DNA of 64,000 nucleotides from Minisyncoccota bacterium (lineage in GTDB: Bacteria > Patescibacteriota > Minisyncoccia > Phycocordibacterales > GWA1-40-21), in assembly GCA_041664585.1 (NCBI GenBank), contig JBAYKL010000002.1, positions 88,328 through 152,327 on the forward strand, read 5' to 3'. Under the pieces are notes generated by a model. That model saw only the letters and a program-made list of their open reading frames with translations, ran no database searches and was not told the DNA's origin. Positions 7,891 to 39,310 of the stretch are shown here, in pieces; position 1 is the stretch's first letter, and each line of letters starts with the position of its first letter. The position numbers and the translations under genes were made by a program.

Positions 7891-7941
7891 TTTCCCAAAA
7901 AGAGTTATAATTAACCCGTTATTAGTTAATATCATAAAATT

Positions 7942-8220
7942 ATGGGATTATTTTGGACAGATGCAAAACCAAGGGTTACAGAGATTGAATTTCATAAAGT
8001 AAGAGCGGAACTTGCTGGGGATAATTTTACTGAAAAAGAAAGAGATCGAATCGAAGAAATATTTCGTGCAGATTTATATGAAGAAAAAGAGAAAGATAAA
8101 GGAATAGATGAACAAGAAATAGACAAAGGAGTTGCTTGGATGAGAGAACACGTAAGCGAACATCATATATCACTAGAAAAGATAGATATTCTGGAAAAAA
8201 AGCTAAAAGCTAGACTATAA
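7942..8220 (+). CDS. hypothetical acidic protein
   Basis: 92 aa, E/K-rich (EKERDRIEEIFRADLYEEKEKDKGIDEQEIDKG), with no recognisable motif. It is followed by its own terminator. Confidence 0.45.
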   Translation: MGLFWTDAKPRVTEIEFHKVRAELAGDNFTEKERDRIEEIFRADLYEEKEKDKGIDEQEIDKGVAWMREHVSEHHISLEKIDILEKKLKARL

Positions 8221-8227
8221 ATATCAC

Positions 8228-8260
8228 AAAAAGGACCTCTTTATAAGAGGTCCTTTTTGT
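8228..8260 (+). terminator. rho-independent terminator
   Basis: AGGACCTCTT-tat-AAGAGGTCCT followed by TTTTT. Confidence 0.8.
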
Positions 8261-8302
8261 GATATGCTCTTTGCGGATAAGTAAACCAGGAAGGAGAATA
8301 AT

Positions 8303-8647
8303 ATGGGTAATGTGGTTGATAATCTGAAGGAAAGATTTGAAAACAGAAAAGTAAAAGCAATTGTCGGAAATTTAGATTTTTTTAGGCTTCTTCAAGAATG
8401 CTTAAATGCAAAGGAAAGTACAGATGAAGAAAAACATCTGAAAAAGATAGCCTACGAAAATCTAAAAAAGACTTGTCTTACTCTGGACCCGAAAGACGTC
8501 CGGGTTTTACTAGCATACATACAAGTACCTAGAAGCCACCCCATTAGCAATATTCTAAAGGAAGCGGTTTCTAGATCGGATCTAACCTACGAAGAATGGT
8601 GTTGGGCAGTTAGTCAGACATTTTTCACAGATGGTCCCAAAAAATAA
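8303..8647 (+). CDS. hypothetical protein
   Basis: 114 aa, preceded by AGGAAGGAG 8 nt upstream. No recognisable family. Confidence 0.5.
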   Translation: MGNVVDNLKERFENRKVKAIVGNLDFFRLLQECLNAKESTDEEKHLKKIAYENLKKTCLTLDPKDVRVLLAYIQVPRSHPISNILKEAVSRSDLTYEEWCWAVSQTFFTDGPKK

Positions 8648-23033: not shown

Positions 23034-23066
23034 AAAAAAGCCAGCACTAAGTGCTGGCTTTTTTAT
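23034..23066. terminator. bidirectional terminator
   Basis: AAAAAA-GCCAGCAC-taa-GTGCTGGC-TTTTTT. Confidence 0.85.
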
Positions 23067-24193
23067 TATATATATTTTTCTAAATCACCTTCTGAGATTG
23101 TAATCCACTCTCCTTGAGAATTTGTTTTTGAAGAAGCAACATTCCTAATAGTTTCAGAGATGTTTGTGTCATTCAATCTCTTTGCTTTCAAAAGATTAAT
23201 AACAGCTCCTTGTGAAATAATTATATTATTCATTCTTGCGTAGTCTTCGATTTGAGACATCGCTTTAGTGTCAGCATGAACCTCAGTAGATATTACATTT
23301 TCTGAAGCTATAACTACAGGTACTTCCTGTGCTTCTTTCTTCTTTAATAGAAAGTATGCAATTGTCGTGCTCCAAAGTATCAAGCTTAGAGTAAACAATA
23401 CAACCTTCATAGTATCACCGGCTCCAGTATATGGCACATCGCTTAGGTAAACAGAAGCTACATAAGGGTTAGTTTGAGTATATGCGAGAACCTGATTTAC
23501 GTTTACAGTACAAGTTCTTGTAATACTTTGACCGTTAGATACGATTGTAAGGTTAGCAGTCTTTGTACCACCAGTGTTGTATGTCTTTGGTGCTGTTTGA
23601 CCGTTTGAAGAGAGACCTTCGTCTCCTGTCCAGTAATATGTGTAAAAACCGTTACCTCCTGTGGCACTAGCTGTCCAAGTGACAACGCCACCAACTTCTG
23701 TATTTGATACGCCTGCAGCACAAGAACCGTTTAGTGAGCTATAGTTGTTGTAGGTGTAGTTATAACCATTGTTATAGTTCCAGCCGCTATTACCTCCATT
23801 GTCATAATATGAGTTCGGACCATAGACATTACCGTTTGTAGAGTTCCAACCACCACAAGTCGTAGTCGCGTTACATCCACAAGACCCACAAGAAGAAGTA
23901 TCCCAATAGTTGTGACCCCCGCCATAGTTACCATGTGAATAATAATCATTGTAATGGTAATAATCATTATCCCAATCCATATCTATATGCCAGTCTTCAA
24001 CTTCATCCTCTATGTGATCCCAAGCACTAGCGGATACATCTGAAACATCATCCCAAGCGTCTTCGAAGAAATTTCCCAAACGACTCCATACATCAGCATG
24101 AGCATAAGTTGGTACAGAAAATACAAAAACAGACAATAGAGAAATCGCTGTTACGACAAAAGCTTTTTTGCTTGTATTTATAATGTTTTTCAT
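23066..24193 (-). CDS. secreted PKD-like domain protein with an internal sortase-type sorting signal (VPYTG + TM + KKK) and an extra C-terminal domain
   Basis: Signal peptide, then a D/Y/N/G-rich low-complexity region. A Cys-bounded PKD-like module follows (TWTASATGGNGFYTYYWTG...TANLTIVSNGQSITRTCTVNV). Then comes ...SDVPYTGAGDTMKVVLFTLSLILWSTTIAYFLLKKKEAQ, followed by about 90 further residues. It lies immediately downstream of the sortase on the same strand with no terminator between them. Confidence 0.6.
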   Translation of the reverse strand: MKNIINTSKKAFVVTAISLLSVFVFSVPTYAHADVWSRLGNFFEDAWDDVSDVSASAWDHIEDEVEDWHIDMDWDNDYYHYNDYYSHGNYGGGHNYWDTSSCGSCGCNATTTCGGWNSTNGNVYGPNSYYDNGGNSGWNYNNGYNYTYNNYSSLNGSCAAGVSNTEVGGVVTWTASATGGNGFYTYYWTGDEGLSSNGQTAPKTYNTGGTKTANLTIVSNGQSITRTCTVNVNQVLAYTQTNPYVASVYLSDVPYTGAGDTMKVVLFTLSLILWSTTIAYFLLKKKEAQEVPVVIASENVISTEVHADTKAMSQIEDYARMNNIIISQGAVINLLKAKRLNDTNISETIRNVASSKTNSQGEWITISEGDLEKYI

Positions 24194-26361: not shown

Positions 26362-28431
26362 CTAAATATCTATATTCGCCAACTTCGCATTAGATTGTAT
26401 GAAGGCTTTTCTTGCAGGAACATCTGTTCCCATAAGCATATCAAATACTTTATCTGCTTCCTGAGCATCTTTGATACTTACCCTCTTCATCATTCTTCTT
26501 GTAGGATCCATGGTCGTTTCCCAAAGCTCTTCAGAGTTCATTTCTCCAAGACCTTTATATCTTTGCACAGAAACTTTTGGAGATTTCTTCCCTTCTTTTT
26601 CATTTGTATTTTCTTCACCTTCAGCGACGACTTCCTCTTCTGTTTCTTCAGTCTCTGCGTCTGATATTTTTTCTTTCTTGAAGAAAGCTGTCTTTTCTTC
26701 TTCGGTATAGAAATAGTGAACTTCTTTTCCTACTTTTACTTTATAAAGTGGTGGTTGAGCAATACAGATAAAACCTCCGTCTATAAGTGGTTTGAAATAT
26801 CTATAAAACAATGTAAGCAAGAGGGTTCTGATGTGGGCTCCATCAACGTCCGCATCGGTAGCTATAATAATTTTGTGATATCTTAATTTTTCAATATTAA
26901 ATGTATCTCCAATAGCAGTACCAAGAGCAACTACCAAATTAGTAATTTGTTCTGATCCAAGCATTCTATCAAGTCTCGCTCTTTCTATGTTTAGAATTTT
27001 ACCTCTCAAAGGCAATATGGCTTGAGTCTTTCTATCACGACCCATCTTCGCTGTACCTCCTGCAGAATCTCCCTCCACAATAATAAGCTCTGATTCTGAA
27101 GCATTATTACTCTGACAGTCAGCAAGTTTACCAGGCAATGTCATACCTTCTAGAGCGCCCTTTCTCAATATTGAGTCTTTAGCTGCTTTAGCTGCTTTTC
27201 TCGCTCTAAGGGCCAAAATAACCTTAGAAATGATAGCTTTAGCATCATCTGGATTCTCTTCAAGAAAACCATTGAAAGCCGCACCAAAGACCTCTTCTAC
27301 GGCGCTTCTAGCCTCAACAGAACCAAGCTTGGCCTTTGTCTGACCCTCAAATTGAATCTCTCTTAGTTTTACGGAAACAACGGCTGTAATACCCTCGAGT
27401 ACATCGTCTCCTGAAAAGCTGTCTTCGCTATCTTTAACTAAATTATTTTTCTTAGCATAAGCGTTCAAGGCTCTAGTAAGTGCAGCTTTGAAACCAGTAA
27501 TATGAGTACCCCCTTCTGGGTTATAAATATTGTTTGCAAAAGGCATTATTCTAGAAGAAATATCATCTACATACTGAAGTGATACCTCTACAGATTCTAC
27601 CGTTTCCGTTTTCTTCTCAACATAAAAAACATTTCTATGAATTGGCTTTTGGAATTGGTTATAGAATTTTACAAAAGACAAAAGTCCCCCTTCAAAATAA
27701 AAGGAGTGGGACATTGCTTCTATACCAAGGTCTTGTAAGAATAATGATTCTATTTCTGTAAAATCAACTTTTGAATCTCTTGCGTCTATAACAGTAATTT
27801 TCAATCCTTTAACAAGATATGCTTGTTGTCTCATGTGAGAGACTATTCTTTCAAAATCAAATTCGATTCCTTCTTTGAAAATTTCAGCATCTGGTTTGAA
27901 AATAGTCGCAGTACCATGAAAATCAGATTTACCTATTTTTTTAACAGCCGCTTTCTTTTTACCTTGAGAATATTCTTGATAATAAATACCACCATCTCTG
28001 TGCACAAGAACTTTCATGTAAATAGAAAGCGCATTCACAACAGAAGCACCCACACCGTGCAAACCTCCAGAAACTTTATATCCTTCTCCCCCGAATTTTC
28101 CTCCAGCATGGAGAACTGTCATGATTGTTTCTAGAGCAGAAACTTTTGATTGTTTATGTAAGTCTACAGGAATACCTCTACCATTATCAACAACTCTAAC
28201 CATGTTATCTGGTAAAAGTGCAACTTCGATACGGTTAGCAAAAGCGCCCATGGCCTCGTCACGAGAGTTATCAAAGATTTCAGTAACAAGGTGGTTTAAA
28301 CCATCTGGTCCAGTAGTACCAATATACATACCAGGTCTCTTTCTGACCGGTTCTAGACCCTCAAGAACTTGAATGGAACTAGCATCATAGCTACCCTTTT
28401 TTACCTCTTTTTCATCTTTATTTTTGGCCAT
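26362..28431 (-). CDS. gyrB: DNA gyrase subunit B
   Basis: N-terminal GHKL ATPase (...GLHHLVTEIFDNSRDEAMGA... class; here LNHLVTEIFDNSRDEAM), TOPRIM (EGDSAGG), and a C-terminal tail. 689 aa. Confidence 0.93.
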   Translation of the reverse strand: MAKNKDEKEVKKGSYDASSIQVLEGLEPVRKRPGMYIGTTGPDGLNHLVTEIFDNSRDEAMGAFANRIEVALLPDNMVRVVDNGRGIPVDLHKQSKVSALETIMTVLHAGGKFGGEGYKVSGGLHGVGASVVNALSIYMKVLVHRDGGIYYQEYSQGKKKAAVKKIGKSDFHGTATIFKPDAEIFKEGIEFDFERIVSHMRQQAYLVKGLKITVIDARDSKVDFTEIESLFLQDLGIEAMSHSFYFEGGLLSFVKFYNQFQKPIHRNVFYVEKKTETVESVEVSLQYVDDISSRIMPFANNIYNPEGGTHITGFKAALTRALNAYAKKNNLVKDSEDSFSGDDVLEGITAVVSVKLREIQFEGQTKAKLGSVEARSAVEEVFGAAFNGFLEENPDDAKAIISKVILALRARKAAKAAKDSILRKGALEGMTLPGKLADCQSNNASESELIIVEGDSAGGTAKMGRDRKTQAILPLRGKILNIERARLDRMLGSEQITNLVVALGTAIGDTFNIEKLRYHKIIIATDADVDGAHIRTLLLTLFYRYFKPLIDGGFICIAQPPLYKVKVGKEVHYFYTEEEKTAFFKKEKISDAETEETEEEVVAEGEENTNEKEGKKSPKVSVQRYKGLGEMNSEELWETTMDPTRRMMKRVSIKDAQEADKVFDMLMGTDVPARKAFIQSNAKLANIDI

Positions 28432-28514: not shown

Positions 28515-29102
28515 TTATACTTTTTCTACAAAAATAGCCAGCTTTTTCCAACTCTTTTTGAAATCAGAAATATTAACAAACTTATTCTTACCGTCTGCAT
28601 CAGATTTTGCTTCTGGATCGTTAATATATAATCCCTTTATAACATCCCCACACTCCTCAATCCCAGATACCACAACCATATGTCCAGAAGTTCTTGGGTT
28701 ATTTATATCCTTAGCTAGAGAGACTAGTACTGGTAATCCAGCTTTTATGTTACTAATTATTTTATTGATTCCAAAATCTAAAAGATTTTCTGAATGATCT
28801 AAATTCTTAAATTCTTGTCTGTAAGAAGGAATGTTATTATTTCTCAAAAGAATTACGAGTAGTTCGTGTCCCCAACCATATTGTTCAGTGTATCCATCAT
28901 GAACTCTATCTCTTTTTTCTAATTCTTTTGAAATTAAGAGACCTTCCTTTACTAAATCTCTAGTTTCGGTTTTTATTCCAAAATAATCTAATACCATTTT
29001 TACACAAACAATAGCACAAACTTTTGTTTGCCAAATATTTTCTATTTCTTCAGAATATTGAGAATAAAAAGGTATATCCAATTTCATTATCTTACTTGCC
29101 AA
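28515..29102 (-). CDS. C39-like (Peptidase_C39_2 / BtrH-like) papain-fold cysteine peptidase, cytosolic
   Basis: DIPFYSQ...KVCAIVCVKMVL (Cys), ...GHMVVVSG (His) and ...YINDP (Asp) follow the C39-like family pattern. There is no signal peptide. It overlaps the pheT stop by 16 nt. Confidence 0.6.
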   Translation of the reverse strand: MASKIMKLDIPFYSQYSEEIENIWQTKVCAIVCVKMVLDYFGIKTETRDLVKEGLLISKELEKRDRVHDGYTEQYGWGHELLVILLRNNNIPSYRQEFKNLDHSENLLDFGINKIISNIKAGLPVLVSLAKDINNPRTSGHMVVVSGIEECGDVIKGLYINDPEAKSDADGKNKFVNISDFKKSWKKLAIFVEKV

Positions 29103-31459
29103 CCATTATTAGCGTTCATTTTATCTGTAATCTTTTGCATTATAGAATTTACTTCATCGTCAGTAAGAGTTCTCTCATAGGATTGAAATATCAAACGATA
29201 CGCGTAAGAAGTTTTTGAAGAGCCATCTTCAAATTTCTTAGTAAAGACATCGAACAATCTATTTTTAATCATAAGATCACCAGCTTCTTTTGAAATAATT
29301 TCAAATACTTCTTCTGATTTTGTACCTTCTGGGGTAAACACAGCAATATCTCTTATCATAAAAGGATACTGAGATATTTTTTTAAATCTTTTTGTTTTAT
29401 CCCCTACTTCAGAAAAATCATATTCTTTCGTATCGCTATCTATTTCTGACATTATTTTATCCCATTCATATTCAGCAATATTTTCTTCTTTATTTATCTT
29501 AGACAAGCTTACACCCAAGACTTCAGAAATTGCTTTTCCTGCCTCATTTAATAAATCAGCCTCTTTTGGTTTTTTAACCCCCAAAGGATTTTTTACACCG
29601 ATAGCCAATCTTTGAGATTCACCATCTTTAGTGAATACATGTCCAAATTCAAATATCTTTATCTGAGACATTTCTACAAGTTCATTATATCTCACATTAA
29701 ATTCTAAAGAATCTTTAATTCCATCTGTAAGATTTGTTCTTAAATACTTTCTTTCTGAGGACATTGGGTTCTCAAGTTCTATTTCCCCACTATTTCTAAA
29801 AGAATAATTTATAACTTCGGAAAAACCCAAATCATACAAAATTCGTCTTACCTTTTCTTTATAGTAGAAATCTTTATTGACCACCGCATTAACACTTTCA
29901 TTTGGTAAGGCAACATTTGTTATTTTGTCATAACCATATATTCTACCTATGTCTTCGGCCAAATCTTCTTTAATTCTCAAATCTAATCTTTCATCTGGTA
30001 CAGTAATAACAAATCTTTCTTCCCCATCGGTCATTCTTCTATAACCAACAATATTTTTGAATCTCTCAGCTTTATCTAAATCTCCAACAACTACTTTTCC
30101 AAATAGTTCGGTTGTGTAGATAACTTTTCCATCACCTATATATATGCCAACATGATCTACGCCATGTTCTGCTTTCGTACCAGGAAGAAAATTTATTGTC
30201 TCATAATGAATATTACCAACGCCAGTATTTGAGAAAATCATGTCTCCTGGTATAAGTTCTCCTTTTGAGATTTCCTTTCCAAAAACAAATTGATCTATTG
30301 AAACGCGAGGAATCTGAACTCCCGCTCTAGAAAAACAATACAAGGCAAAACCCGAACAATCAAATGAGTTCGGCGCCTCATAAGTGATACTTGAACCTTT
30401 TTTATAAGGAACACCAATCAAAAAATTAGCAACTTCTAAAACCTTTTCAACAGGTTTTACTTTCTCATATTCAAAACCAAATTTATTAAAAATCTCTTCT
30501 ATATCTTTATCTGTGATATTTACACCAATAATAGAGCTCGCCTCTTTAGAAGAAATACCAAGTTTATATTTATTTGCTCTCCTTGGATAATTATCAAAAA
30601 CTTCTCCTACTTTTGTATCCGGAGTACCGGCAATTTCTACAATAACTTTTGTGAGAACATCCATCGCTTCCCCCGCCATTTCTGCAGCATAGTCATTTTC
30701 ATATCTCTTTGATGCATCTGTTTGGATCCTTAATCTTTGAGATGTTTTTCTTACAAGCACAGGATCAAAACTTGCTGATTCAAGTACTATATTTTTTGTA
30801 TTCTCATCAAGCTCCGCGTATGTTCCACCCTTAATACCAGCTATAGCCAAAGGATTTGAGCCGTCTGTAATGAGTAAAACATTTTCGTCTAAATCAACCT
30901 CCTTTTTATCAAGTGTAGTGATGTGATCTCCTAATTTTGCTTTTTGTACACTAATCAAAATATTTTCCTTAGCAAGTTTATCTGCATCAAAAGCATGCAT
31001 CGGCTGGCCAATCTCAAACATCACAAAATTTGTAGCGTCTACTACATTATTTATAGATCTCTGCCCTATCGCTTCTATTCTTTCTTTAAGCCAATCTGGA
31101 GATTCATGTACCAAGACATTTTCAACAACTCTTCCTATGTATCTTCTACAAAGTTTTTCGTCTTCTATTTTTACATCCAACTTTTTTAAAGTCTGAAAAA
31201 TTTGAAAATCTTTTAGTTCTCTAGAATTCTTTTTTACTTTTAATCCAAATATCGCCCCGACTTCTTTAGCTATACCTCTATGACACAAACAACTGTGATT
31301 TAAATTCGGCAATACCTTAACATCAAAAATCTGATCGTCTCCTTTTGATTCAATACCCTCGACTTCCAAAGAATGCATGGTAAGACCATCTGCAATTTTA
31401 TTTACATCTGGTAGGTTATTATCAAAAAAGTTTTTGAGCCAATTATAGGAAATAATCAT
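29087..31459 (-). CDS. pheT: phenylalanyl-tRNA synthetase beta subunit with an NlpC/P60 domain inserted in the B5 domain and no B2 (OB-fold) domain
   Basis: B1 domain (MIISYNWLKNFF), B3/B4 (CRRYIGRVVENV...QPMHAFDADKL), B5 first half (KLGISSKEASSIIGVNITDKDIEEIFNKFGFEYEK), and B5 second half (RFVITVPDERLDLRIKEDLAEDIGRIYGYD). The B6/7 catalytic-like and C-terminal FDX-like domains are present. About 145 inserted residues (around 336-482) carry NlpC/P60 motifs: FDCSGF, PGDMIFS and HVGIYIGDGKVIY. Confidence 0.9.
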   Translation of the reverse strand: MIISYNWLKNFFDNNLPDVNKIADGLTMHSLEVEGIESKGDDQIFDVKVLPNLNHSCLCHRGIAKEVGAIFGLKVKKNSRELKDFQIFQTLKKLDVKIEDEKLCRRYIGRVVENVLVHESPDWLKERIEAIGQRSINNVVDATNFVMFEIGQPMHAFDADKLAKENILISVQKAKLGDHITTLDKKEVDLDENVLLITDGSNPLAIAGIKGGTYAELDENTKNIVLESASFDPVLVRKTSQRLRIQTDASKRYENDYAAEMAGEAMDVLTKVIVEIAGTPDTKVGEVFDNYPRRANKYKLGISSKEASSIIGVNITDKDIEEIFNKFGFEYEKVKPVEKVLEVANFLIGVPYKKGSSITYEAPNSFDCSGFALYCFSRAGVQIPRVSIDQFVFGKEISKGELIPGDMIFSNTGVGNIHYETINFLPGTKAEHGVDHVGIYIGDGKVIYTTELFGKVVVGDLDKAERFKNIVGYRRMTDGEERFVITVPDERLDLRIKEDLAEDIGRIYGYDKITNVALPNESVNAVVNKDFYYKEKVRRILYDLGFSEVINYSFRNSGEIELENPMSSERKYLRTNLTDGIKDSLEFNVRYNELVEMSQIKIFEFGHVFTKDGESQRLAIGVKNPLGVKKPKEADLLNEAGKAISEVLGVSLSKINKEENIAEYEWDKIMSEIDSDTKEYDFSEVGDKTKRFKKISQYPFMIRDIAVFTPEGTKSEEVFEIISKEAGDLMIKNRLFDVFTKKFEDGSSKTSYAYRLIFQSYERTLTDDEVNSIMQKITDKMNANNGWQVR

Positions 31460-31461
31460 AA

Positions 31462-32217
31462 TTAAAATTGATTAACCAGACGTAAATCTCCTGAATAAAA
31501 TAAACGGATATCGTCTATACTATATTTAAGCATCGCGAGTCTATCTACCCCAACACCAAAAGCAAAACCTTTCCATTCGTTTGGATTAATCCCGACCCTG
31601 CTTAAAACTTTCGGATGGACAACCCCAGCACCCATTACTTCCACCCAACCAGTACCTTTGCATACCGGGCATCCAACTTCACCCTTACACTTAAAGCAAG
31701 AGATGTCTATTTCTGCTCCTGGTTCAACGAAAGGAAAATAGCTAGGTCTGAATCTTACATCGATATCTTTTTCAAAAAATTCGTCAAAAAATTTATTTAA
31801 TACTGTCTTAAGGGTAGCAAGAGAAACTTCTTTATCAACATACAAACCTTCAAGTTGTTGAAATTGTGCCTCATGTGTAGCGTCTGTCGCTTCTTTTCTA
31901 TATGTCTTTCCTGGACAAAGAATTTTAATTGGTGGATTTTTATTTCCTTCCATATGGTGAATCTGCATGGCGCTAGTCTGCGTACGCATAAGTCTTCTTT
32001 CTACCCCTGGTAAATCCTTGGTTGGTTTAACCCAAAAAGTATCCTGCATATCTCTTGCTGGATGATCTTTTGGAACATTGAGAGCATCAAAATTGTAATA
32101 TTCTGTTTCAAGTTCTGGACCATCTACAAGAGTAAAACCCATCTTAAAAAAGATACGATTTATATCGTCTACGACTCTAGTCAGCGGGTGAACGTGAATA
32201 TTCTTATTTTTATCCAT
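31462..32217 (-). CDS. pheS: phenylalanyl-tRNA synthetase alpha subunit, core only, with a 4-Cys knuckle
   Basis: Class II core motifs (HPLTRV..., FRxE-type motif 2, GAGVVHP...GFAFGVGVDRLAML motif 3). The N-terminal coiled-coil region is absent (251 aa). There is a CFKCKGEVGCPVCKG insertion. Confidence 0.9.
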   Translation of the reverse strand: MDKNKNIHVHPLTRVVDDINRIFFKMGFTLVDGPELETEYYNFDALNVPKDHPARDMQDTFWVKPTKDLPGVERRLMRTQTSAMQIHHMEGNKNPPIKILCPGKTYRKEATDATHEAQFQQLEGLYVDKEVSLATLKTVLNKFFDEFFEKDIDVRFRPSYFPFVEPGAEIDISCFKCKGEVGCPVCKGTGWVEVMGAGVVHPKVLSRVGINPNEWKGFAFGVGVDRLAMLKYSIDDIRLFYSGDLRLVNQF

Positions 32218-37912: not shown

Positions 37913-39310
37913 CTATAAGCTCAATGTATCTATATCCTTCTCAAATTGAACCGCTCTGTCAGCAACCTGTTTACCATATCCATATTTACCATACATATAA
38001 GTGCTTAAACGACTCCCCTTCAAACTTAATCCCCCATAGTATTTTGAAGCTGAACAGGCCCATATATCAGTCTTCTTTGTGAATGCTGTTTTACATATAG
38101 CCTGTGCGTCTTTTATATACAAAGCTGTCCCAACGAAAGCATCTCTGCTATTGAATGGAGACGGTATAGAAGAACCCACAACAGCCCCCACACGATTCTT
38201 ATAACCCGTAGCTGTACCTATATTCCACCAAGTACTTGGCATAAATTGTGCCGGGCCCATGGCACCACCATATTCCCCATCTGCATATATCGGACAGGAT
38301 ACTGGAGTTTTATCTGGATTTAAACCTAACTCAGACATTATAGCCAAAAAGGAAGGTATCTGAGTTTTACTCATAACAGTTCCATTTGTATTTTTTGCGC
38401 TTTGATTGTAGTAGCACTTACCTATATTTTTACCTATAAGTCCATCGACCGAAGTCTCTTGAGTGAGTATTGCTAAGACTAAGGCAGAACTTACACCAAT
38501 AGTGCTTTCATATGGTTTTATAATCTTAAGAGCTTCACCGAAAGTTAATTCTTGCCCACCGACTGTCCTAAATAGTCTATTACTTATCTGACTCTTTAAT
38601 TTCTCTTTATCAGCAATTATTTTTTTATAAGCACTCTCCTGCCCTTTTGCTACTGTAAGAATATTCTGCTTTTCTTTTTTATAAACCTCAAGTTGTCTTT
38701 TTTCAGCATCTTGTTCGAACTTCAATTTTTCCTCCTGAACCTTTCTGGTTTCTAAATCTTTCTTCTCAGTTTCTGATGTCTTTTTCGTAGTTGTAAGCTC
38801 TGATGTTAGCTCCCTAAGCTTTTTATCAATAGTTGCATAATTATCTATATCTTTAAATAAATCAGATAAGTTCTGACTAGAAAGTGCAATCTCAATTAAG
38901 GAAATATTATTTAAATTATATGTATCTCGAATCATCTTAGAAACAGATTTTTTTATATTCTCCATTCTAGTAGACAATGTACCTATATACTGGGTTTTGG
39001 TTGTAATATTTTCGCCAAGTTGTTTTATCTTCGCAGTTCTCGCATTTATTTCAATTTGTGTAGTATTAATCTTATAAGTAAGCTCTGCTATACCCTTTTC
39101 CAAATCAGAAGATTGTTTTTGTGTTTTTGATAATATGGCTTTTTGTTCAACGATATCTCTATCACATTGATCCAAAATAGCCTGGAGTTCACTGTTGGAT
39201 TTTCCTTCAACATTTGCATCACAGGAAATAGCCCTGGCATCACCAGAGGTAAAGGCCAAGAAAACAAAGGAAGACAAAATCAAAACCGCAAATATTCTTT
39301 TCAAAAACAT
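37913..39310 (-). CDS. secreted coiled-coil protein with a C-terminal MltB/SLT_2-like lytic transglycosylase domain
   Basis: Signal peptide, then about 230 aa of coiled coil. The C-terminal region ...LTQETSVDG...GAMGPAQFMPSTW... matches the lytic transglycosylase B family motif (GxMGxxQFMPST). Confidence 0.65.
   Translation of the reverse strand: MFLKRIFAVLILSSFVFLAFTSGDARAISCDANVEGKSNSELQAILDQCDRDIVEQKAILSKTQKQSSDLEKGIAELTYKINTTQIEINARTAKIKQLGENITTKTQYIGTLSTRMENIKKSVSKMIRDTYNLNNISLIEIALSSQNLSDLFKDIDNYATIDKKLRELTSELTTTKKTSETEKKDLETRKVQEEKLKFEQDAEKRQLEVYKKEKQNILTVAKGQESAYKKIIADKEKLKSQISNRLFRTVGGQELTFGEALKIIKPYESTIGVSSALVLAILTQETSVDGLIGKNIGKCYYNQSAKNTNGTVMSKTQIPSFLAIMSELGLNPDKTPVSCPIYADGEYGGAMGPAQFMPSTWWNIGTATGYKNRVGAVVGSSIPSPFNSRDAFVGTALYIKDAQAICKTAFTKKTDIWACSASKYYGGLSLKGSRLSTYMYGKYGYGKQVADRAVQFEKDIDTLSL

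Follow-up and report, generated by a model that had tools for sequence, protein, structure and literature searches.

An NlpC/P60 peptidase-family domain nested in the beta subunit of phenylalanyl-tRNA synthetase of Paceibacteria, and its association with a Peptidase_C39_2 gene

Domains appended to or inserted in aminoacyl-tRNA synthetases are usually RNA-binding or editing modules. The NlpC/P60 superfamily includes LRAT acyltransferases with a Cys-His-His triad, and YkfC-type enzymes, which act in cytoplasmic recycling of murein peptides and whose accessory domains confine the active site to small substrates. Here we analyse a stretch of 64,000 nucleotides (nt) of a Minisyncoccota bacterium (GCA_041664585.1, contig JBAYKL010000002.1, positions 88,328-152,327; hereafter the window), in which pheT, the gene for the beta subunit of phenylalanyl-tRNA synthetase (PheRS), encodes an NlpC/P60 domain within its B5 domain, next to a gene of the Peptidase_C39_2 family. 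The architecture is real and widespread in a large group of small-genome Paceibacteria of the candidate phyla radiation (CPR). An earlier note on this DNA, made from the sequence alone, had called it non-standard, and in the literature searched we found no description of an NlpC/P60 domain in PheRS, of insertions in CPR synthetases, of a stand-alone B5-NlpC/P60 protein or of a fusion of this module to Peptidase_C39_2. The NlpC/P60 and PheT domains are of known kinds; their nesting, the partnership with Peptidase_C39_2 and the cassette behaviour described below are apparently new. The interest of the system lies in a predicted cysteine peptidase of the cell-wall-hydrolase type being nested in an essential synthetase subunit, in a poorly understood bacterial radiation. 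Throughout, residue numbers are those of the 790-aa window PheT and coordinates are window positions; pheT lies on the minus strand, and its relevant parts are as follows.

29087..31459, minus strand: pheT, PheRS beta subunit, 790 aa (continuous open reading frame, Pfam, NCBIfam, AlphaFold2 model)
30455..30574, minus strand: first half of B5, about residues 296-335, strand beta1, two helices and strand beta2, ending in FNKFGFEYEK (alignment with 2rhs_B to residue 444)
30020..30454, minus strand: NlpC/P60 (MEROPS C40-type) papain-fold domain, residues 336-480, an exchangeable cassette (Pfam, phmmer, Foldseek)
29924..30019, minus strand: second half of B5, residues 481-512, strand beta3 and a helix, ERFVITVPDERLDLRIKEDLAEDIGRIYGYDK (Pfam B5 match at 476-510)

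The nested domain and its distribution

The proposal of the earlier note, an NlpC/P60 papain-fold domain inside the B5 domain of an authentic, operonic PheT, is borne out by Pfam, by alignment with a solved PheT and by the AlphaFold2 model; the domain had been placed at 30020-30454, which corresponds to residues 336-480, and all the motifs quoted for it are there. The Pfam profile NLPC_P60 (PF00877) matches residues 349-471 (E = 4.5e-14; 52.7 bits against a gathering score of 23). The domain order of the protein is B1, B3/4, B5 with the nested NlpC/P60, CLM and FDX-ACB, with Pfam matches to B3_4 at residues 104-278 and to CLM and FDX-ACB, and NCBIfam assigns it to TIGR00472 pheT_bact (458.2 bits, cut-off 402.65). 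The Pfam B5 profile matches the second half only (residues 476-510, profile positions 33-67); this half, ERFVITVPDERLDLRIKEDLAEDIGRIYGYDK, bears the acidic residues D493, D499, E502 and D503. When aligned with PheT of S. haemolyticus (2rhs_B), residues 41-331 correspond to chain residues 160-444 and residues 481-616 to chain residues 449-592, so that approximately 149 residues stand in place of a four-residue turn.

The AlphaFold2 model of the window PheT, built from an alignment of 82 sequences, has a mean predicted local distance difference test score of 91.1, with values of 90-97 for the ten-residue blocks over the insert, and joins the two halves of B5 into a single beta-alpha-alpha-beta | beta-alpha unit (strand 299-302, helix 304-311, helix 317-327 and strand 330-334, followed after the insert by strand 482-486 and helix 497-508). 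In this model, a check that the earlier note had proposed, the insert is placed between strands beta2 and beta3. With the whole model, Foldseek finds beta chains of bacterial PheRS (E = 1e-51 to 1e-40). The insert itself resembles the catalytic domain of the C. difficile autolysin Acd24020 (7cfl; 35% identity, template modelling score 0.89-0.91, root-mean-square deviation 1.7-2.2 A), which is also its best sequence match in the PDB (phmmer, E = 1.9e-15), and its further fold matches are other peptidoglycan DL-endopeptidases. When a stand-alone relative was modelled separately, the same folds came up, among them LytE, CwlO, MepS and YkfC (3h41). The modelled fold is papain-like alpha+beta, with the Cys predicted at the N terminus of a helix and the His on the following beta-sheet. 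Since profile and fold searches of the insert both point to a peptidase fold, there is no case for a non-peptidase fold, a possibility that the earlier note had raised against its own proposal. The nearest sequences outside the CPR are Desulfosporosinus wall hydrolases that combine PG_binding_1 and NlpC/P60.

We compared the window PheT with its 120 closest matches, among which 95 carry the insert at identical junctions, down to 47% identity, and 25 do not. As for most comparisons reported here, the source material for the homologues is metagenome assemblies, a general caveat. The insert-bearing homologues are named as Paceibacterota, Minisyncoccia, Taylor- and Yonathbacteria, whereas the insert-less proteins are about 641 aa long and have a short turn (..FEWKK-EGD-x-VITVP..) instead. 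When two insert-specific patterns were run against a single representative genome of each GTDB species, 482 of these genomes proved to encode a relative of the insert; the best 80 of the 482 loci are all from Patescibacteria/Paceibacteria and all carry the module, either in pheT or stand-alone. Likewise, a profile search of 1.84 billion cluster representatives returned 164 clusters at E <= 1e-30, most of which are PheTs of approximately 780-810 aa in which the module spans about residues 300-520. In public databases, such proteins are annotated as 'phenylalanine--tRNA ligase beta subunit-related protein' or 'C40 family peptidase'. The insert is thus lineage-wide, the question that the earlier note had wished to see settled by alignment of related genomes.

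The insert could in principle be a separate gene brought into frame by a gene-calling error, or the product of a chimeric contig, but the chance of this is next to nil. The reading frame runs uninterrupted through PheT domains on both sides, as the earlier note had described, with no frameshift and no break in composition (G+C content of 0.32-0.36 over the insert and 0.29-0.39 elsewhere in pheT). The identical window protein is recorded by NCBI, JGI, Logan and ENA and lies on a 169-kb contig; L011 and L012, two loci that come from different samples and independent assemblies, show 100% identity over this region; and the insert is also present in a complete Campbellbacteria genome (CP011215.1) and in a single-cell genome (L086). 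Together with the junctions shared by 95 homologues, the 482 genomes of the species scan and the modelling of both B5 halves as one domain, these observations rule out an artefact of assembly or gene calling.

Catalytic residues, the neighbouring peptidase gene and stand-alone modules

Three positions of the insert form its predicted active site:

30356..30358, minus strand: codon TGT of Cys368, predicted nucleophile, in the motif FDCSGF (invariant in relatives)
30152..30154, minus strand: codon CAT of His436, predicted base, in the motif GVDHVG (invariant in relatives)
30116..30118, minus strand: codon TAC of Tyr448, third triad position (His in 87 of 95 homologues)

Cys368, which the earlier note had numbered 369 and which the codon check corrects, and His436 are invariant in 95 of 95 chimeric PheTs and in 35 of 35 stand-alone modules; D367, R385, D389, G405 and D406 are invariant in the 95 chimeras as well. 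The third triad position does lie, as had been noted, 12 residues after the His and is occupied in the window by Tyr. Among the chimeras, this position is His in 87, Tyr in five, Gln in two and Asn in one, and Cys-His-His is kept in all 35 stand-alone modules; accordingly, the family has the expected polar third residue (His, Glu, Gln or Asn) and the window allele does not. Tyr448 occurs only in the small clade of the window (P0001-4 and P0007), and its codon, TAC, is one transition away from CAC. Judging from these alignments, the insert family is ancestrally a canonical Cys-His-His NlpC/P60 from which the window variant is derived, and Tyr448 is a recent change in a small clade. Within that clade (P0001 versus P0007), the insert is as conserved as its flanks (identity of 0.82 and 0.83, respectively), so the Tyr allele is still constrained. 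A review of papain-like enzymes notes the Cys-His-His triad and reports that active members vary at the third residue, including Ser, Cys and Glu (PMC10318531). The activity predicted for the window allele has probably not been lost, although it may have changed. Hence, of the altered or inactive site suggested in the earlier note, a possible alteration stands for the Tyr allele of the window, and the suggestion does not extend to the family. For most lineages, we infer from the conservation of Cys-His(-His) that the insert would be catalytically active.

The genes that adjoin pheT are the following:

28515..29087, minus strand: Peptidase_C39_2-family gene, 190 aa from its ATG (Pfam, E = 5.8e-14)
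31462..32217, minus strand: pheS, PheRS alpha subunit, short 251-aa form (Pfam tRNA-synt_2d, E = 9.1e-99)
26362..28431, minus strand: gyrB, downstream synteny anchor (translated open reading frame)

The downstream gene, which the earlier note had described as C39-like, is a member of Peptidase_C39_2 (PF13529; 53.3 bits against a gathering score of 24), and it begins with an ATG that shares 1 nt with the stop codon of pheT (TAATG). Its best solved relative is a C39-like peptidase, 3erv, a weak match (E = 5.5e-4). Across 45 orthologues, Q15, C29, H79 and H141 never vary, and D162 reaches at least 90% conservation; the four invariant residues are present in the window protein, which has the Gln/Cys/His(/Asp) catalytic set of the family. 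By eye, it has no N-terminal hydrophobic segment. Papers that mention PF13529 treat the domain largely as an endolysin catalytic domain. We annotated 121 loci with local hidden Markov models; they are not all independent and include a few duplicates. Of the 91 module-bearing loci with downstream sequence, 55 have an adjoining or overlapping Peptidase_C39_2, 15 have one at a distance of 0.5-4 kb, and in 21 it is not seen; it is found in none of the seven closely related insert-less pheT loci. Thus, Peptidase_C39_2 is the genetic partner of the insert rather than an incidental neighbour. In addition, members of two protein clusters (P0201, 397 aa, and P0230, 392 aa) are single polypeptides that combine B5-NlpC/P60 with Peptidase_C39_2, Rosetta-stone evidence for a link between the module and the neighbouring gene of the window.

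Two further loci touch on this partnership. In the closely related insert-less locus L004, the place of Peptidase_C39_2 between pheT and gyrB is taken by a VanX-type M15 D-Ala-D-Ala dipeptidase (7936-8595), which hints, if only softly, that this position is one for wall-peptide enzymes. At another locus (L122:800-1273), an open reading frame of 157 aa has a stop that overlaps the Peptidase_C39_2 start. To the eye, its Cys...His stretches (GISCAAF, KPGAVIIW, HMGF) resemble those of NlpC/P60 or CHAP domains. Pfam gives no match for this frame, which may be another papain-like partner of Peptidase_C39_2, away from PheRS.

A search with the insert alone retrieved Parcubacteria and Minisyncoccota proteins of approximately 200-238 aa, which are 40-51% identical to it along its full length and consist of the first half of B5, NlpC/P60 and the second half of B5, and nothing else. 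Three loci that share the synteny of the window, glycosyltransferase / PEGA - pheS - X - (Peptidase_C39_2) - gyrB, illustrate this organization, alongside three that have the same kind of synthetase:

L001:8001-8672, L002:8001-8687 and L115:2342-3016: stand-alone B5-NlpC/P60, 223-228 aa, start overlapping single-chain pheS by 4 nt
L001:6851-7999, L002:6856-8004, L115:1142-2338 and L121, L122, L123:4001-5149: single-chain PheRS-like protein, approximately 380 aa

In L001, L002 and L115, pheS encodes a fusion of tRNA-synt_2d and FDX-ACB of 382-399 aa, and the rest of PheT is gone. Such single-chain PheRS-like proteins are encoded at the pheS locus beside gyrB, with no adjoining pheT, in many Parcubacteria; those of L001, L002, L115 and L121-L123 score 232-240 bits with TIGR00469 pheS_mito (cut-off 258), those of L001, L002 and L115 score 245-250 bits with SrmL, the 'PheS-related mystery ligase' (cut-off 300), and the family comprises at least 120 clusters at 68-100% identity. 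Since the module stands beside some single-chain PheRS and not beside those of L121-L123, some of these lineages have kept it and others have lost it. The residues of the stand-alone proteins that correspond to D499 and E502 are no longer acidic, being mostly Asn/Lys and Lys, respectively, and the B5 remnant looks like a structural frame for the peptidase rather than a part of PheRS. These proteins (start MAWIYRVGLS...) have no hydrophobic N terminus by eye, and no LysM, SH3b or PG_binding domain appears in the precomputed Pfam lists. The literature searched holds no description of a monomeric or single-chain bacterial PheRS and nothing of relevance on SrmL, and a preprint that mentions PheRS together with Patescibacteria concerns only pheS as a counter-selection marker; the bacterial shift to a single-chain PheRS thus appears to be undescribed.

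As regards the host genes, pheS ends 2 nt upstream of pheT, an operonic arrangement. The window PheS scores 319.9 bits with NCBIfam pheS (cut-off 237), but the match begins at profile position 69 of 324, so the protein is without the N-terminal coiled coil. The missing coiled coil of PheS is tRNA-binding. Pfam finds no B2/tRNA_bind domain in the window PheT, and the PheRS of the window is in this sense doubly reduced; B2/tRNA_bind is present in the PheT relatives P0099 and P0109 (901-903 aa). The gyrB gene follows the pheT region in L001, L002, L004, L006, L007, L010 and L121-L123 and is an anchor common to chimeric, insert-less and stand-alone loci. Elsewhere in the window, the open reading frames at 37913-39310 (465 aa) and 23066-24193 (375 aa) have no Pfam match at E <= 1e-5, and the other genes surveyed are housekeeping genes, namely GatB, Obg, iPGM, enolase, SecA, phosphoketolase, PPDK and a Wzy_C protein.

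Cassette exchange and possible functions

The insert behaves as a cassette. In one pair of PheTs (P0004 and P0008), the flanks are 98% identical and the inserts 59%. At the DNA level, L011/L012 and L009 share 96-100% identity in pheS and in the greater part of the pheT flanks. A few windows in the 5' half of pheT drop to 84-92%, and it is only between approximately 30,050 and 30,455 that identity is as low as 59-69%. The density of mismatches between L011 and L009 is accordingly 0.30-0.38 per nt in 30060..30454 and 0.03-0.08 outside, falling to 0 over 29,100-29,900. The 5' part of pheT (window positions 30700-31459) differs by approximately 8% in the same pair, with the 3' 800 nt identical, which suggests further recombination tracts in pheT. 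On a neighbour-joining tree of the PheT flanks with the insert left out, at least three allele classes (A with Tyr, B and C) are intermingled in the clade of the window. Of the protein pairs with flank identity of about 0.9, 54% have an insert more than 0.15 lower. At long range, the relation is reversed: in distant pairs (flank identity 0.4-0.5) the insert is 5-9 identity points above the flanks, which is more in keeping with recombination among a restricted set of old alleles than with rapid divergence. On the flank tree, the insert is present on every deep branch, and alleles without it are nested at no fewer than six places; given that recombination occurs, these may be due to precise losses on several occasions, to an insert-less allele having spread, or to a combination of the two. 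Clean natural cases of domain-level recombination in a housekeeping protein are rare, and this swap between all but identical essential genes is one of them.

The Peptidase_C39_2 gene is likewise mosaic or hypervariable, with protein identity of 0.37-0.44 between strains whose flanks are 0.8-0.9 identical; between the window and L010, nucleotide identity is approximately 50-57% over this gene and 91% at its gyrB-proximal end. We considered whether insert and Peptidase_C39_2 alleles co-vary as cognate pairs and rejected this, because the partial Mantel correlation is only 0.12 (p about 0.0015) and the two vary independently in the clade of the window: between the window and L015 the insert identity is 0.83 and that of Peptidase_C39_2 0.44, and between L015 and L010 they are 0.61 and 0.69.

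The explanation that we favour, with a probability of about 0.5, is that the insert is an autonomous, predicted active cytoplasmic NlpC/P60 hydrolase that is hosted by PheT and acts with Peptidase_C39_2 on peptidoglycan-type peptides. The domain would derive from the catalytic domains of cell-wall DL-endopeptidases and would have been captured in the beta2-beta3 surface hairpin of B5 in an ancestor of a large group of Paceibacteria. PheT would then be its host and not its client, with aminoacylation and editing left to the unaltered parts of PheRS, and the peptidase lobe would work in the cytoplasm together with the translationally coupled Peptidase_C39_2. The export signal and wall-targeting domains of a secreted autolysin or endolysin are absent, the domain being internal to PheT, and we infer a cytoplasmic location and cooperation of the two enzymes. 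The most likely chemistry would be hydrolysis of small gamma-D-glutamyl or peptidoglycan-type peptides, resembling the cytoplasmic murein-peptide salvage of YkfC-type enzymes and useful to auxotrophic epibionts. Such a substrate is suggested, by analogy, by the usual chemistry of the two families and by the soft context of the L004 dipeptidase; because both families usually cut peptidoglycan peptides and YkfC provides a precedent, salvage or turnover of wall-derived gamma-D-glutamyl peptides is favoured. Several points weigh against this explanation. The proposed substrate is an extrapolation from family chemistry and the L004 context, and a cytoplasmic DL-endopeptidase would need to spare UDP-MurNAc-peptide precursors. 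The partner gene is not seen near the module in 21 of the 91 loci, the two sets of alleles show no co-variation in the window's clade, and allelic mosaicism this strong is uncommon in a simple salvage enzyme. The window allele has Tyr where the third catalytic His is expected, and the module stays by pheS, with the 4-nt overlap, after the loss of PheT, which leaves room for a role linked to PheRS.

Such a role, in which the lobe would act on a substrate or product of PheRS or regulate the enzyme, could take the form of trans-editing of mis-acylated tRNA(Phe), hydrolysis of N-blocked or peptidyl-tRNA, or LRAT-like transfer of Phe via a Cys thioester. We consider it rather improbable. In its favour, the lobe is covalently part of B5, where D493, D499, E502 and E/D503 are invariant in 120 PheTs, residues listed by UniProt/HAMAP as binding a shared Mg2+ through which B5 bridges to the alpha subunit; the stand-alone module follows directly 3' of single-chain pheS; and LRAT acyltransferases of the same superfamily share the triad. 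However, the canonical editing site is intact. The positions presumed, from published mutagenesis, to serve editing in E. coli PheT (R244, N254, H265, E334, T354 and A356) map through alignment with 3pco_B to R134, N144, H155, E227, T247 and A249 of the window protein, all six being kept; in the 82-sequence alignment, N144, H155 and E227 show no variation, and the conservation of T247 is at least 90%. The insert is therefore no substitute for editing, and replacement of a degenerate editing domain can be ruled out. Moreover, the insert is missing from nested close relatives whose PheT is otherwise 60-69% identical, many single-chain PheRS lineages (L121, L122 and L123) have no module at all, the acidic D499 and E502 are lost from the stand-alone modules, the tight linkage and fusion are with a second peptidase and not with tRNA-related genes, and the closest relatives are wall endopeptidases rather than LRAT-type enzymes. 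The role on mis-acylated tRNA that the earlier note had floated thus finds no support, given also that the module persists without PheT. A more far-fetched variant, which we regard as a long shot, is that lobe and Peptidase_C39_2 couple PheRS chemistry to the chemistry of cell-envelope peptides: the Cys368 thiol, for instance, might capture phenylalanyl from Phe-AMP or Phe-tRNA(Phe), in the LRAT manner, and pass it to a peptidoglycan-type peptide. If true, this would be a synthetase-embedded route of aminoacyl transfer or peptide remodelling, unrelated to Fem/MurM transferases, and the allele classes would reflect different acceptor specificities.

The allelic pattern itself invites another explanation, namely that cassette and Peptidase_C39_2 form a conflict module under frequency-dependent selection, for example through antagonism with phage, host or competitor, which would keep divergent alleles and presence/absence polymorphism within a housekeeping operon. 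The sharp tract borders that separate inserts of 59-69% identity from backbones of 96-100%, the excess of insert divergence in 54% of closely related pairs, the three or more intermingled allele classes, the divergence of Peptidase_C39_2 down to 0.37-0.44 and the insert-less alleles nested at several tree positions are all as this explanation would have it. We nevertheless hold it unlikely. PADLOC-DB gives no defence match for PheT and its insert, the stand-alone module (P0126), the fusion protein (P0201) or Peptidase_C39_2, which speaks against membership of a defence system, and no relatives of the insert occur in IMG/VR viral contigs, which does the same for phage origin or carriage. No toxin- or antitoxin-like partner is seen and both proteins look cytoplasmic; the conservation of the insert above that of PheT at long range fits a limited pool of alleles better than arms-race divergence, and insert and Peptidase_C39_2 do not co-vary as a cognate pair. 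Alternatively, the domain might be a passive passenger, non-catalytic or selfish and intein-like in its distribution, with the Tyr allele of the window as an inactivated remnant, which we judge quite improbable. It does sit in frame at a conserved site of an essential gene, is sporadic and has a phylogeny discordant with that of its host gene, the window allele lacks the canonical third His, and non-catalytic NlpC/P60 domains exist, RipD (4jxb) being among the fold matches. Yet a passenger would hardly keep Cys and His in every one of 95 chimeras and 35 stand-alone modules along with further invariant residues, exceed PheT in long-range conservation, survive as a separate gene after PheT is lost or, in the Tyr clade, remain as conserved as the flanks (0.82 versus 0.83). 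An intein proper was rejected: there is no Pfam match to a Hint/intein or endonuclease domain, the fold is NlpC/P60, and the insert starts with VKP and ends with GEE-RF, its junctions (..YEK|VKP.. and ..GEE|RFV..) being devoid of splicing residues.

Comparison with described systems

The favoured explanation, a PheT-hosted cytoplasmic hydrolase, makes the module and Peptidase_C39_2 a two-enzyme system open to expression and assay; if host-derived murein peptides are the substrate, it would bear on the supply of D-Glu and diamino acids to auxotrophic CPR epibionts. Compared with canonical bacterial PheT (TIGR00472), the window protein has the same B1, B3/4, B5, CLM and FDX-ACB domains and keeps the editing residues, the acidic residues of B5 and the pheS-pheT operon. 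It differs from PheTs with an uninterrupted B5 in having a 149-residue enzyme domain in place of the beta2-beta3 turn, and from canonical PheRS in lacking B2/tRNA_bind and in having a partner PheS without the N-terminal coiled coil. Mitochondrial FARS2, which joins the PheS catalytic module to B8/FDX-ACB, has the architecture of the single-chain loci, not of the window; unlike FARS2, however, the single-chain proteins are bacterial (Parcubacteria), are encoded at the pheS locus, score below the pheS_mito and SrmL cut-offs and in some genomes are followed by the stand-alone B5-NlpC/P60 remnant. The module, in other words, outlives its host protein when PheRS turns single-chain, in a mitochondria-like manner.

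In their genetics, inteins and other elements inserted in frame in essential genes come close to the insert, being likewise found at one precise site, sporadically and with a phylogeny decoupled from that of the host. By contrast with inteins, the insert has no Hint fold, splicing-junction residues or homing endonuclease and, according to the model, stays in the mature protein as a folded lobe. In their enzymology, the wall DL-endopeptidases are the obvious relatives. The domains of C. difficile Acd24020, B. subtilis LytE and CwlO, and E. coli MepS (Spr) share the fold of the insert and the same order of Cys-helix and His-strand, and their Cys-His-His triad is found in most members of the insert family; the window allele differs in its Tyr as third triad residue. 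Alignment by eye shows approximately 18 extra conserved residues between the GD motif and the catalytic His of the insert, and another 19 or so at this place in most stand-alone forms. Unlike the wall enzymes, the insert comes without a signal peptide and without LysM, SH3b or PG_binding domains, and it is nested in a subunit of a cytoplasmic aminoacyl-tRNA synthetase. A parallel in this respect is YkfC of B. cereus (3H41), which is among the fold matches and is an NlpC/P60 enzyme that presumably acts intracellularly, on free stem peptides. The system described here differs from YkfC in that the accessory domain is a split B5 rather than SH3b, there is no ykfABCD-like operon, the partner is Peptidase_C39_2 and the activity is a predicted one.

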